Shown here: in pieces, positions 59,166 to 64,000 of the stretch
Position numbering within the stretch: the first letter of the stretch is position 1
How the letters are laid out: every line of letters starts with the position of its first letter
Sequence record: MN648445
Reading direction: 5' to 3' (one strand)
Source: Escherichia phage FP43
DNA: 64,000 bases
The notes under the pieces: model-generated
The model's database searches: none
What the model was told of the DNA's origin: nothing
Seen by the model: the letters and a program-made list of their open reading frames with translations, nothing else
Position numbers and translations under genes: made by a program

Positions 59166-59801
59166 ATGAAAACTACACCAATCACTATCGCTATTGACGC
59201 AATCGTAAAACAAGCTTCATCTCTTGCCACTATGGCTAAAGTAATTAGTCAAAACTCTGCCCGATATAATGCTATTCTTGAAACTCTTCGTCGCCCTGGA
59301 CTGAGTAATTATGAAAGCCGAGTAATTATTACAGGTGTTGGTAAGAACGCTAATATCGCAACTAAAGCTTCCGAGACTTTTGCTTCACTAGGTATTCCTA
59401 GCATGTATTTGAACACCGGGCATTATTCTCATGGCGACGCAGGATTTATTGCACCTAATGATGTATTAGTTCACATCAGTCGTTCTGGTAAGACTGAAGA
59501 AATGATAGGTGTTGCTAAACATCTTCGTATGATTCGTCCTCAGGTTAAACAGATTCTGTTACATTGTAACCCTGACATTCCGCAAGAATACGAAGCTCTT
59601 TTTGATTATACGTTCTGTACAGGCATCGCGGTAGAGGTTGATGAGAATTCTCTGGCTCCGACCATGTCCACTACATTGTTGTTAGCGCTTATCGATACGT
59701 TTGCTATCAACCTTTCGTCTGAACGTGGATTTACCTCTAATGACTTCCTTAAGTTCCACCCTGGTGGTGCACTAGGTGCCATGTTACGAGGCGAACAATG
59801 A
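59166..59801 (+). CDS. SIS-domain sugar-phosphate isomerase (GmhA/KdsD-like)
   Basis: 211 aa; GVGKNANIATKASETF and C-terminal HPGGALG typical of SIS isomerases. Confidence 0.65.
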   Translation: MKTTPITIAIDAIVKQASSLATMAKVISQNSARYNAILETLRRPGLSNYESRVIITGVGKNANIATKASETFASLGIPSMYLNTGHYSHGDAGFIAPNDVLVHISRSGKTEEMIGVAKHLRMIRPQVKQILLHCNPDIPQEYEALFDYTFCTGIAVEVDENSLAPTMSTTLLLALIDTFAINLSSERGFTSNDFLKFHPGGALGAMLRGEQ

Positions 59802-59941
59802 AAGCAATAACAATAGGACTTTTACTATTGATGCTTGTCATGACTATCTACTGGAGCTTAACGGCTCCAGTAATGATTCCGACTCTTATAATCGGATGGA
59901 TTATGATTGGACTACAAGCAAAGTATGAATGCTTTAACTAG
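59798..59941 (+). CDS. 47-aa two-helix membrane peptide
   Basis: MKAITIGLLLLMLVMTIYWSLTAPVMIPTLIIGWIMIGL...; ATGA overlap with isomerase stop; below ORF-track cutoff. Confidence 0.35.
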   Translation: MKAITIGLLLLMLVMTIYWSLTAPVMIPTLIIGWIMIGLQAKYECFN

Positions 59942-59982
59942 AATAGTGTACGATACACCTACTTACCAATGAGGACCACAAC

Positions 59983-61668
59983 ATGAAAAAAGCTGTTATT
60001 CTTGGTGCTGGACTGGCAACTCGTTTGTATCCAATAACGCACCATATTCCTAAGGTGCTTGTTAACTATAAACAAGACACTATTCTGAGCAATTTGTATA
60101 CAATTTATTCTGACCTTGGCGCAGATGAAATTATTGTAGTAGTTCATTCAAAATTTGCTGAAACTGTTCGAGCTTATTGCGAGCAAGAAGGGTTCAATGT
60201 GACTATTCGTACAGTTGATGAAGCGTATGGTTCTGCTTATGCTCTTGCTAAATTATACAAAGATTTAGATGGCCATAACGTAATTGTTAACTGGTGTGAT
60301 ATTATTCCTGACTTTGGTTCATGGTCTTGGAATGTTAACGCAATCTATGTTAAGGGTGATGAATGTCGATATAATTTCGATGGTGAAAATATCACTAACG
60401 TAGGTTCAACAGGTGGTAATGTTGTAGGAATTTATCAGTTCAAAGACTGGGAATTCTACATGGGTTCTACTGATGAGGAAATTCACGAATACTGCAAAGG
60501 TCGTGATTTCGTAGAATTCCTTTACGGCAGTGCATTCAATAAATCAGAGCTTATGAATCTAATTGATTTAGGTGATATGCCTAAACTTGAAAAGGCTCAT
60601 GAAGTTCGTGAACTGAATCGTAGTTTTAATGCAGTTGAAATTGGCGAAGAAACTGTAACTAAATTCGCGTTAACCGAACAAGGTCGAGCTCTTCAAAAAG
60701 ATGAGATTTCATGGTATTTGAAAGTGAAATCAGATTCAGTTCCTCAGTTAGTTTCGGTAAATGAAAATAATTTTGAAATGGAACGTATTAAAGGTAAGCC
60801 GGCATTTGAATATATTAAATCCAAATCAAGTCTTGCTCGTCCACAAATTGTTGATGCAATTTTAGATGCACTGAAATTCAGCACGGACACTTATTTTGTA
60901 AGTCCTGAAACTGTTCGCCGTGATTTCACTAAAGAGTTCTATACGAAAGTTATTGATCGTTGTGAAAGCATTCAGCCATTGATTGATTCATTTGGTAAAA
61001 TCACACATGTGAACTACACTAAGATTGGACGTCTGAAGCCAATGTTGAAACAAGCTTTAGAACATCTTATTCGTTATCATAACCGTTCTCAGGGACAGTA
61101 CTCTGTTATTCATGGTGACCCGAACTTCAGTAATACTATGATTACCGATAACGGCGAAGTCAAGTTTATCGACCCTCGTGGATATTTTGGTGAAACCAAG
61201 ATTTACGGGCCAAAATTGTATGATGAAGCTAAAGTGCTTTATGCTGTTTCAGGTTATGATGAATTCAATGCTAATCCGACCTGGGGTCAGTTTACTATTG
61301 ATGAAACAACTTGTAATGTGACTATTAACATCAATCCATTAGTTTACAAATATGGAAAGATGAGTTCGTTTAACGAGTATCATCATTTGGCAGTAGCAAT
61401 TATCTGGATTGCATTAGGTGGTTATTTCAAGAATAATCCACTTAAAGCGGTTGCCGCATATTATAAAGGTATGGAACTTCTGACTAAGCAATTACGTAAC
61501 ATGGGCCGTGTACTTCAAGACGGCTCTATTAGTTATGACGTAGCAGAACCTGTAACGGCTACTCTGATTACAAAAAATCCTGGTAAATGGGTACTAACTG
61601 ATAAAGAAACTGGTGTTTCCTATCGTCCAATCGGCGGCGATATCACTCATCAATGGGAACGAATCTAA
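59983..61668 (+). CDS. Bifunctional sugar-1-phosphate nucleotidyltransferase / sugar kinase
   Basis: 561 aa; N-terminal MKKAVILGAGLATRLYP (RmlA/GlmU-like); C-terminal HGDPNFSN ... IDPRG (APH/choline-kinase-like). Confidence 0.65.
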   Translation: MKKAVILGAGLATRLYPITHHIPKVLVNYKQDTILSNLYTIYSDLGADEIIVVVHSKFAETVRAYCEQEGFNVTIRTVDEAYGSAYALAKLYKDLDGHNVIVNWCDIIPDFGSWSWNVNAIYVKGDECRYNFDGENITNVGSTGGNVVGIYQFKDWEFYMGSTDEEIHEYCKGRDFVEFLYGSAFNKSELMNLIDLGDMPKLEKAHEVRELNRSFNAVEIGEETVTKFALTEQGRALQKDEISWYLKVKSDSVPQLVSVNENNFEMERIKGKPAFEYIKSKSSLARPQIVDAILDALKFSTDTYFVSPETVRRDFTKEFYTKVIDRCESIQPLIDSFGKITHVNYTKIGRLKPMLKQALEHLIRYHNRSQGQYSVIHGDPNFSNTMITDNGEVKFIDPRGYFGETKIYGPKLYDEAKVLYAVSGYDEFNANPTWGQFTIDETTCNVTININPLVYKYGKMSSFNEYHHLAVAIIWIALGGYFKNNPLKAVAAYYKGMELLTKQLRNMGRVLQDGSISYDVAEPVTATLITKNPGKWVLTDKETGVSYRPIGGDITHQWERI

Positions 61669-62054
61669 TGCACCGTGTAGAAAACATGCTTAATCTTTGT
61701 TTTGATGTCGATGATTGTATAACAGAGTGGAATAACAATCGTGATTACGTGAACTTCAAACCAGACGTCGAAATGGTGTCTGCCATTAATGCCCTGTATG
61801 ATGCAGGGCATACCATAACGCTTTACACTGCCCGTGGTATGAAGTCGGTAGGTCCTGGTCGTATAGCAATTGACATTCTCCCAAGTCTGATTCAGAACTT
61901 GGAAAACATTGGTTTGAAGTACCATAATTTGCTAACACATAAACCAGTATATGATTGGATTATCGACGACAAAGCTATGCGTCCTGACGAATTCAAAGCT
62001 CTTATGAATAAAGGCGAATTCGAAACATTTAAATCATATAAACCAAATCTATAA
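61668..62054 (+). CDS. HAD-superfamily phosphatase (small, KdsC/GmhB-like)
   Basis: 128 aa; motif I FDVDDCIT, motif II ITLYTAR, Lys in HKP, motif IV IIDD. Confidence 0.6.
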   Translation: MHRVENMLNLCFDVDDCITEWNNNRDYVNFKPDVEMVSAINALYDAGHTITLYTARGMKSVGPGRIAIDILPSLIQNLENIGLKYHNLLTHKPVYDWIIDDKAMRPDEFKALMNKGEFETFKSYKPNL

Positions 62055-62100
62055 TAATTTAAGTAAGACCTGCAAAAACCATCGCATCAATTAACGCGAG

Positions 62101-63273
62101 ATGCAAAAAAAAATGAATACTTTTAAAATCGGAACGAATTTTGATTTAGCTCTTCTTGATAAAATCGTAGAGCTCAATAAAACCTATCCTAATAGCTTGA
62201 TAAACGAAGTATATGGCTCTACAAGAGAAATGGCTTTTGTAGCAGCCAGACCTGATTTTAGGCTTCCTGACGTTGACAAAAAGATGTTAGAAGATTACGT
62301 TAAACGTTGTAACGAATTAGGTATTTGCTTTAACTATACACTCAACACGATAAATCCTGGTTCAAAAAGAGAACTAGTTGAGTGGAAGAAGAAAGCTATT
62401 CAGGATTATGTTCAGTATCTTTGGTCAATAGGCGTATGGCGTATTACTATCGCTAACCCTGTTGTTATGGAAATTGTTCGTGAAGTCAATAAAGATATTG
62501 AGATTGAAGTTTCAACAATTCTACATGTTGATGCTGTAACTCAAATCAAATACTTGCATGACCAATATAACATCAAAAAGGTCTGTTGCGGAATTCATAA
62601 GAACCGTTCAGTTTCTTTCCTGAAGCGTGCAGCAGAGTTTTGCAATAAGAACAATATAATATTTGAAGTTCTTGTAAATGAGTTCTGTTCTAATGCTGGT
62701 AAAGGGTATACAACACATTGTAGCTATCGTGACTCTTGCTATATTTTCCATAGTACTGATGTTACCGCTGATGATGCTAAATCCTTAAATGGATATCCTA
62801 TGCAGCACTGTATTAAAGCTCGTGATACAGACCCATTTAACTGGTTGAGAACTCGTTTTGTTCGTCCTCAAGATTTGAAACTTTATAATGATATTGGTAT
62901 CACTCAATTTAAAGTTTCAGGACGTACAGGTAGCACAGACTACATTTTGAAAGTTCTTGAAGCATACGCTTCTGAAAAGTTTGAAGGTAATTTGTTAGAA
63001 CTGTGGAAGCCTTTAGAGACTATTTTCACTCTTGAAAATGAGACTGAGTTTTCACATACAGTAAATATTGAAACCTCTTTGTTAGATGGCTTTTTAGAAA
63101 AAAGGTGGTTCAGACATCCAGATTTTGATTGTGCTAATGAAATCTGTGGGTCAACGTGTACATATTGTGAAAGGTATTATAAACGTCAATTATCTAAAAA
63201 CGGGTTAGCAGAAAACTCCATATCTATTATTGATATAACTAACTCTGATGACGCTTTGAGGTACCCGGAATGA
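62101..63273 (+). CDS. U32-family protein (peptidase U32 / prephenate-dependent hydroxylase fold)
   Basis: 390 aa; blocks align by eye to U32 proteins: IANPVVMEIVRE, IIFEVLVNEFC, KVSGRTGSTDY (cf. KIEGRTKSFYY), plus C-terminal Cys cluster. Confidence 0.6.
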   Translation: MQKKMNTFKIGTNFDLALLDKIVELNKTYPNSLINEVYGSTREMAFVAARPDFRLPDVDKKMLEDYVKRCNELGICFNYTLNTINPGSKRELVEWKKKAIQDYVQYLWSIGVWRITIANPVVMEIVREVNKDIEIEVSTILHVDAVTQIKYLHDQYNIKKVCCGIHKNRSVSFLKRAAEFCNKNNIIFEVLVNEFCSNAGKGYTTHCSYRDSCYIFHSTDVTADDAKSLNGYPMQHCIKARDTDPFNWLRTRFVRPQDLKLYNDIGITQFKVSGRTGSTDYILKVLEAYASEKFEGNLLELWKPLETIFTLENETEFSHTVNIETSLLDGFLEKRWFRHPDFDCANEICGSTCTYCERYYKRQLSKNGLAENSISIIDITNSDDALRYPE

Positions 63274-63509
63274 TTTCTAGAAAAAGTTTTAATTATAAAC
63301 TTAACGAAGAGATTTTGACTATGAAACTGAACACTAACGAACAAATTCTTAAAAAGGCCCTTATGGGCCTGTTTGAAACCAAAGCGGCTAAAGTGATTAA
63401 AGAACCTGTTCAATTGGAATACTACACTGATGCATTCCTTCATAGTGTTCTTGGAAGTATAGATTCTGAAGCTTTACGTTATATCAACATTGTCAAGAAA
63501 TTCAAATAA
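63270..63509 (+). CDS. Hypothetical protein
   Basis: 79-aa ORF with ATGA overlap. Confidence 0.4.
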   Translation: MISRKSFNYKLNEEILTMKLNTNEQILKKALMGLFETKAAKVIKEPVQLEYYTDAFLHSVLGSIDSEALRYINIVKKFK

Positions 63510-63532
63510 GCTTTACGAATTGAGTATATAAT
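63510..63532 (+). promoter_or_regulatory. Middle-type promoter upstream of the TS-family gene
   Basis: GCTTTA 63510..63515, 11 nt, TATAAT 63527..63532. Confidence 0.45.
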
Positions 63533-63568
63533 AAATTGTATTGAGGTAAACATGGAAAATATAACACA

Positions 63569-64000
63569 ATGAAATATATCAAAGCCGCAGATTTTCAAGC
63601 CGCATTTAAAGCAGTCAATCGTGAAATTTTAGAAAACCCCGAATTCGTAACTGATTCTCGTATTGGACGTTGTAATGAAATCGGGTCCATGACAGTAGTT
63701 GTTGACAATCCATCATCATTCAAAATGACCGACCCACGTATTAACCGCATCTCTTATGAATATGCCGAAGACTTCTGGAAGTTTATGATTTCTGGTGGTA
63801 CTGATGCAGAAGAAGCGTTTAAGGCATATCCTAATGTCGCTAAATTCATTTCTAAACCAAAATCAGATGCTTTGCCTGCGAACTTCAACACTTTCTACGG
63901 TCCTCGCATTGTGGCCCAATTACCAGCTCTTCTAAAAGAACTTAAAGAGAAACCTAACTCTCGAAGAGTTGTGTTCCAAATTCTAGAAAGTTCTGATCAG
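63569..64000 (+). CDS. 42: Thymidylate-synthase-family pyrimidine hydroxymethylase (gene 42 position), N-terminal part; 3' end beyond window
   Basis: TS-like blocks AEDFWKFMISGG and KPNSRRVV (cf. PDSRR); position next to gene 43 as for T4 gene 42; N-terminus diverges from T4 gp42 as recalled. Confidence 0.55.
   Translation, partial: MKYIKAADFQAAFKAVNREILENPEFVTDSRIGRCNEIGSMTVVVDNPSSFKMTDPRINRISYEYAEDFWKFMISGGTDAEEAFKAYPNVAKFISKPKSDALPANFNTFYGPRIVAQLPALLKELKEKPNSRRVVFQILESSDQ

Follow-up and report, generated by a model that had tools for sequence, protein, structure and literature searches.

A probable Mosigvirus 5-hydroxy-dCMP synthase gene with a frameshifted start in the sequence of Escherichia phage FP43

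In the DNA of phage RB69 and of Acinetobacter phage DLP3, an ether oxygen joins arabinose directly to C5 of cytosine (Lee et al., NAR 2026, PMC13326640). The same authors reported that RB69 gp48, a homologue of thymidylate synthase (TS), converts dCMP to 5-hydroxy-dCMP in vivo, that the hydroxyl oxygen is derived from 18O2 and that the purified protein carries an FMN-like flavin. Flavin- and O2-dependent hydroxylation of dCMP has been assayed for RB69 gp48, DLP3 gp80 and the HY126 enzyme (PMC13326640), and for the HY126 homologue a structure with flavin was solved and the reaction reconstituted (He et al., Nat Chem Biol 2026, as related in PMC13326640). An asparagine at the position of Asp169 of Escherichia coli ThyA has been proposed as diagnostic of the 5hodCMP synthases, which have in addition an Asp at the N177 position, linked to cytosine specificity, and a Glu at the L143 position (PMC13326640). 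The same enzyme has been described for Mosigvirus, in the DNA of which arabinose is also ether-linked at C5 (PMC13390438). In the published scheme, given here at second hand as Lee et al. (PMC13326640) relate it, the catalytic cysteine would activate C5 of dCMP, to which loosely bound FMN and O2 would add the hydroxyl. The 5-hydroxy-dCMP would then be phosphorylated, built into DNA in place of dC and arabinosylated on the DNA, with UDP-arabinose supplied by genes immediately upstream of the TS homologue.

The counterpart in phage T4 is gp42. It shares with the enzyme the thymidylate synthase fold, the slot between gene 43 and uvsX and the substrate dCMP, as well as the family's cysteine nucleophile, an acidic residue at the L143 position and an Asp at the N177 position. 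However, T4 gp42 keeps an Asp at the E. coli D169 position, where the relatives of the enzyme have Asn; moreover it is folate-dependent and makes 5hm-dCMP, whereas 5-hydroxy-dCMP synthase uses flavin and O2 and makes 5ho-dCMP.

The stretch of DNA analysed here (the window) comprises 64,000 nucleotides of Escherichia phage FP43 (record MN648445). Over its last 4.1 kb it shares 99.2% identity with Escherichia phage p000v and 96-99% with about 150 other Mosigvirus genomes (RB69 group), and on this sequence similarity the window is DNA of a Mosigvirus, that is of an RB69-like phage. The gene order in T4 is 43-imm.1-imm-42-bgt (beta-gt)-segA-uvsX-40-41. In p000v gene 43 is followed by genes for an arabinose-5-P isomerase, a 47-aa ORF, an NTP-transferase/kinase fusion, a HAD-like phosphatase, a peptidase-U32-family protein and a 79-aa ORF, and then by the TS homologue, a 299-aa glycosyltransferase, a 182-aa kinase, uvsX, 40 and 41. 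Compared with T4, six genes are inserted between 43 and the TS homologue, which nevertheless lies between 43 and uvsX; therefore the reading frame that enters the end of the window sits in the gene-42 slot, as an earlier reading made from the sequence alone (the sequence-only reading) had proposed.

The neighbourhood is that of an arabinosylation pathway. Directly upstream in the window lie genes for a SIS-domain isomerase, an NTP-transferase/kinase, a HAD-like protein and a U32-family protein (Table 1), and directly 3' of the TS homologue in p000v lie the glycosyltransferase and the kinase, so that genes for UDP-arabinose supply and for DNA arabinosylation are both nearby and the arrangement corresponds to that of the RB69 gp45-gp55 cluster. 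The functions of the homologues in RB69, gp55-gp49, are assigned in Table 1 of PMC13326640. The names under which the TS homologue has been deposited are inconsistent: in about 150 Mosigvirus records in GenBank it is called 'deoxycytidylate 5-hydroxymethyltransferase', 'dCMP hydroxymethylase', 'thymidylate synthase', 'thyA' or 'hypothetical protein', and among the approximately 150 such records matching window positions 59900-64000 none was labelled with the published 5-hydroxy-dCMP synthase activity. In the records that match these positions the HAD-like phosphatase is, for its part, widely labelled 'phosphoheptose isomerase'.

Table 1. Positions of the features discussed, in the numbering of the 64,000-nucleotide window.
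Feature	Position	Strand	Basis or remark
Arabinose-activation gene cluster, between gene 43 and the TS homologue	59166-63509	+	ORFs, Pfam, p000v annotation
SIS-domain arabinose-5-P isomerase	59166-59801	+	ORF, Pfam, p000v annotation
47-aa ORF	59798-59941	+	ORF call
NTP-transferase/kinase fusion	59983-61668	+	ORF, Pfam, p000v annotation
HAD-like phosphatase	about 61668-62054	+	ORF, Pfam, p000v annotation
Peptidase-U32-family protein	62113-63273	+	ORF, Pfam PF01136
79-aa ORF	63270-63509	+	ORF call
T4-type middle-promoter-like site: GCTT 63510-63513, 13-nt spacer, TATAAT 63527-63532	63510-63532	+	Sequence; putative function
Shine-Dalgarno GAGG	63543-63546	+	5 nt before ATG 63552, 22 nt before ATG 63569
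Six-codon mini-ORF MENITQ*, frameshifted remnant of MGKHNT	63552-63572	+	Sequence and alignment
Two private changes: GGG to GG (one base deleted, 63554/63555) and C to T at 63560	63554-63560	+	Alignment
Probable 5-hydroxy-dCMP synthase gene, first 144 codons (RB69 gp48 orthologue; from Met7 of the ancestral protein)	63569-64000	+	About 96.5% identity to PDB 9IQU/9IQC

The main reading frame is open from ATG 63569 to base 64000, where it runs off the window with about 88 codons missing. In a phmmer search its 144 residues were found to be approximately 96.5% identical (139/144, counted from the alignment; E = 3e-90) to PDB chains 9IQU and 9IQC/9IR2, which means that close identity to an experimentally characterised 5-hydroxy-dCMP synthase extends over all 144 aa. 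RB69 itself carries the same TS-homologue locus. The assignment to the TS family, which had first been made on the block KPNSRRVV, was confirmed: the block is present, with its PNSRR motif, and the fragment matches PHROG 160 'thymidylate synthase' with E = 2.8e-11. A Pfam search of the 144-residue fragment alone gave no match, and for this reason the full-length orthologue of p000v was used (232 aa from the equivalent Met, 238 aa as annotated from the upstream ATG). It matched the thymidylate synthase superfamily profile PF00303 over its C-terminal half with 57.2 bits, against a cut-off of 24.3. The NCBIfam equivalog models for thymidylate synthase were all far below their cut-offs for this enzyme, the best with 68.7 bits against 174.55.

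The diagnostic residues were compared in an alignment of p000v, 17 IMG/VR homologues from several genera and T4 gp42. The p000v protein and all 17 homologues carry the signature motifs EYPC, MRSQN and QLD, which correspond to the catalytic Cys146 with L143E (E. coli numbering), to D169N and to N177D, respectively; at the same places T4 gp42 has DFMC, MRSND and RND. The window's own copies of these motifs would lie, judging from the relatives, 15-60 codons beyond base 64000. The gene is therefore placed in the family by its neighbours and by the near-identity of the 144 residues. The RB69 gp48/HY126 enzyme (9IQC, 9IQU, 9IR2) and the gene in the window agree in neighbours, gene order, promoter-like site, Shine-Dalgarno sequence and first ATG; they differ in that the window has a one-base deletion after the start codon, which leaves Met7 as the only possible start (232 versus 238 aa). 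The reading frame is thus very probably the 5' 60% of the Mosigvirus 5-hydroxy-dCMP synthase gene, and the mini-ORF in front of it the normal start of that gene, frameshifted by a private deletion.

The enzyme has been described before and differs from an ordinary gp42. That its N-terminal part does not resemble T4 gp42 had been noticed from the sequence alone, and this stood: BLASTP of the fragment against T4 gp42 gave 25% identity over 123 aa with E = 0.001 in a single comparison, and the T4 dCMP hydroxymethylase chains were not among the matches at E <= 10 when the PDB was searched with the fragment by phmmer. Moreover, the full-length p000v orthologue is also only 25% identical to gp42 and has RSQN instead of RSND. 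The best non-self matches in the PDB were bacterial ThyA and MilA (CMP 5-hydroxymethylase), with E = 5e-13 and 2.5e-11 and mostly through the C-terminal half. The PxSRR phosphate-binding motif is common to the three proteins, while the N-terminal half of the window enzyme has no recognisable sequence similarity to either of the other two. The suggestion that the difference from gp42 would be one of substrate (dCMP versus dUMP) did not survive. The published difference is one of chemistry and cofactor, namely an FMN/O2-dependent 5-hydroxylation of dCMP instead of a folate-dependent hydroxymethylation (PMC13326640). It could still be argued that the gene encodes a fast-evolving but ordinary gp42 orthologue, a folate-dependent dCMP hydroxymethylase, as it occupies the position of gene 42, belongs to the TS superfamily with relatives that carry the cytosine-specifying Asp at the N177 position, and is called deoxycytidylate 5-hydroxymethyltransferase in many GenBank records. 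However, an identity to gp42 of 25% is not the similarity of an orthologue, and Asp169, which a gp42-type enzyme keeps within RSND, is replaced by Asn in all the relatives, which have RSQN. In addition, assays of RB69 gp48 give 5hodC and not 5hmdC, with O2-derived oxygen and flavin (PMC13326640), and the ether linkage of arabinose at C5 in Mosigvirus DNA (PMC13390438) also speaks against hydroxymethylation. This explanation can be given almost no weight.

The start of the gene is preceded by a T4-type middle-promoter-like site, the homologue of which in phage SA79RD is annotated as 'similar to phage T4 middle promoter GCTT(N13-15)TATAAT'. A generic sigma-70 scan of the start region found no promoter on the + strand, and the T4 middle-type motif is the only one to fit. 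The mini-ORF reads ATG GAA AAT ATA ACA CAA TGA, and its TGA (63570-63572) overlaps the main ATG (63569-63571) as ATGA (63569-63572); here the sequence-only reading was accurate with regard to coordinates, Shine-Dalgarno sequence and overlap. The main frame is interrupted by a TGA at 63542-63544, and a search for an alternative in-frame start (ATG, GTG or TTG) between it and 63569 found none, therefore ATG 63569 is the sole possible initiator of the long frame. No RNA structure of the T4 gene 38 kind, which would bring the distant Shine-Dalgarno sequence near ATG 63569, was found among the predicted folds of the start region, which are no better than those of shuffled sequences; the region is unstructured (dG = -3.3 kcal/mol, z = +1.3).

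Comparison with the relatives gives the mini-ORF a different meaning. The start in p000v reads ATGGGAAAACATAACACAATGAAA, with the upstream ATG in frame, and the annotated protein begins MGKHNTMKYIK; all the relatives fetched read ATGGGAAAACAT at this site. Seven closest relatives were compared for the two private changes of the window, of which the C-to-T change lies six bases after the deletion, and PhAPEC2 is the same as p000v at both sites. A 41-mer spanning the site and carrying the in-frame allele was found, 100% identical, in 150/150 matching phage records. In contrast, 40-mers of the deletion allele, in the T or the C version, had 0 matches in the phage records, and the deletion pattern had 0 matches in IMG/VR, in JGI metagenome contigs and in GTDB genomes. 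The crystallised chain 9IQC is the 238-aa form that starts MGKHNTMKYIK, at the upstream ATG, and 9IQU starts at residue 5, without the first four residues. The Shine-Dalgarno sequence precedes the first ATG of the ORF in every relative, and in related genera an in-frame upstream ATG follows it too (MSEHN[RL]MK..., for example MSEHNRMKY... and MSEHNLMKH...). The length of the N-terminus varies across genera in the family alignment: the six fetched homologues L010-L015 start at the equivalent of Met7, with a Shine-Dalgarno sequence of their own.

Since the in-frame ATG and its Shine-Dalgarno sequence are conserved in the relatives, positions 63543-63554 are the true start of the gene and the mini-ORF is a frameshift remnant. 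A single-base deletion anywhere in the six codons runs into the TGA embedded in ...CAATGAAA..., and the ATGA overlap results from this frameshift and not from design. On these alignments the Shine-Dalgarno sequence and the upstream ATG exceed chance only as the conserved true start, and the six-codon ORF is found in this genome alone. The picture of an evolved leader peptide, or of a regulatory uORF that controls expression of the enzyme, drew on the good Shine-Dalgarno sequence before the mini-ORF, on the ATGA overlap and on the lack of a Shine-Dalgarno sequence before the main ATG. However, nothing in the approximately 150 phage records conserves the small ORF as a separate frame; the same ATG is in frame in every one of them and is the start of the crystallised protein; MENITQ arises by frameshift of MGKHNT; and the region has no RNA structure able to sense the position of a ribosome. 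As an explanation of this site an evolved leader or uORF is very unlikely, and a leader peptide as a conserved device is effectively refuted. Programmed frameshifting or transcriptional slippage at GGAAAA to restore the frame was also considered and rejected, as the site lies at codon 2 and its runs are not long enough.

The deletion may belong to the phage or to its sequence record. A sequencing or assembly error, perhaps including the C-to-T change, would mean that the phage itself has ATGGGAAAACAT and a 238-aa protein and that no mini-ORF exists. The allele is unique among more than 150 genomes, being absent from the 150 phage records and from three other collections, and genomes with an identical 561-aa neighbour have the gene in frame: of the contigs with this neighbour that reach the TS locus, 6/6 among the matches listed have the 238-aa TS gene. 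The deletion lies in a G homopolymer with a second private change 6 nt away, a pattern expected of a local consensus error, although G3 is a short run. Base-calling can be disturbed by hypermodified cytosines, which counts on the same side. Moreover, the RB69 reference has two acknowledged frameshift errors in the same cluster (PMC13326640).

On the other hand, the private substitutions of the window look as if they had been filtered by selection. Against the seven nearest relatives over 8.1 kb, 10 are synonymous, 1 is non-synonymous and 2 are non-coding. When the 64 kb were aligned to p000v, nine isolated single-base indels were found in a region that is 93% coding: seven intergenic, one at a stop/start junction and one, GGG to GG, inside a CDS, although most long homopolymers lie between genes anyway, which lessens the weight of this distribution. 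In 64 kb no second isolated single-base indel falls inside a reading frame. A generally error-prone assembly was rejected in view of the synonymous bias and of the lack of other frame-disrupting indels within coding sequence. In addition, the deletion is at codon 2, in the sole stretch of the gene where a frameshift is harmless, which fits a tolerated real mutation. We lean slightly towards a real change; an error is the less probable of the two, with a sizeable share of the probability all the same. In either case the mini-ORF is a private allele or an artefact and not a regulatory device.

If the sequence is taken as given, the enzyme is most likely made from Met7 by termination and reinitiation. 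The features that mark coupling are present, in that stop and start overlap, the Shine-Dalgarno sequence stands only before the upstream frame and the downstream start has no initiation signal of its own. After transcription from the middle-type promoter, ribosomes would load at GAGG and AUG 63552, translate the six codons MENITQ, terminate at UGA 63570-63572 and start again at AUG 63569, which overlaps this stop. The leader is unstructured and rich in A/U, and some initiation on it may also be direct. Of the coupling through a leader peptide that the sequence-only reading had suggested, the coupling is still the most plausible route in view of the ATGA and of the placement of the Shine-Dalgarno sequence, but the peptide is not an evolved leader, the ATG being in frame in 150/150 records. 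Four-base overlaps of this kind are found at 11/47 gene junctions in the adjacent 26 kb of p000v. In coupled ATGA junctions of the trpB-trpA type, and in many T4-like gene pairs, stop and start overlap and the downstream cistron has no Shine-Dalgarno sequence, as here; unlike in those, the upstream 'cistron' consists here of six codons and is what happens to be left of the start of the same gene. Only a variable and dispensable N-terminal hexapeptide would be missing from the product. Other genera lack this hexapeptide or have a different one, and a crystallised construct is without part of it, so the enzyme should retain its activity.

A second polymorphism at a gene start was observed in the same cluster. 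The U32-family gene is annotated as starting at ATG 62113, and a run of A separates this codon from another ATG further upstream (62101). The run is A9 in the window, A8 in p000v and in the homologous sequence L023, A7 in PhAPEC2, L003, L025, L026 and L028, and A6 in L024. ATG 62101 is in frame with the gene when the run is A6 or A9; A8 yields MQKK* with an ATGA overlap, and A7 an out-of-frame uORF that overlaps the start of the gene. Here a homopolymer at the start of a gene is naturally polymorphic, the mirror image of the case of the TS gene.

The U32-family gene itself (RB69 gp50 homologue) lies two genes 5' of the O2/flavin-dependent dCMP 5-hydroxylase. Its product matches PF01136 with E = 7e-11 and, weakly, UbiU with E = 9e-4, and has a CX4CX3CX2C motif near the C-terminus. 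U32 proteins (UbiU/V, RlhA, TrhP) act in O2-independent hydroxylations, and in the anaerobic gut the protein might open a way to 5-hydroxycytosine that needs no oxygen. A literature search for a link between U32 proteins and hydroxycytosine found no paper, and RB69 gp50 is labelled only 'sugar or heterocycle reductase' by Lee et al. (PMC13326640). The start of the 79-aa ORF overlaps the U32 stop as ATGA. This ORF, the homologue of RB69 gp49, is conserved in Mosigviruses and matches PHROG 8601 (unknown function) with E = 2e-50; neither PMC13326640 nor PMC13390438 mentions it or gives it a role in the modification pathway.

With this enzyme a protein of the TS fold has switched from a folate to a flavin cofactor and has founded a class of phage DNA with glycosylated 5-hydroxycytosine. 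Its chemistry was established in 2025-2026 and the window adds nothing to that. An automatic annotator working on this genome would miss the start of the gene or call a shortened protein. At most, the frameshift after the start codon illustrates in a small way that ATGA overlaps can buffer phage genes against 5'-proximal frameshifts. Should the deletion be real and the phage viable, it would be a natural experiment in which the hexapeptide of the synthase proves dispensable, and a presumably essential modification enzyme would be expressed entirely by termination and reinitiation after a six-codon remnant; this combined reading, of a real deletion in a viable phage with a dispensable hexapeptide and an enzyme made wholly through reinitiation, seems to us a little better supported than its negation. 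In that case the level of the enzyme, and hence the extent of cytosine modification in the DNA of the phage, might change.
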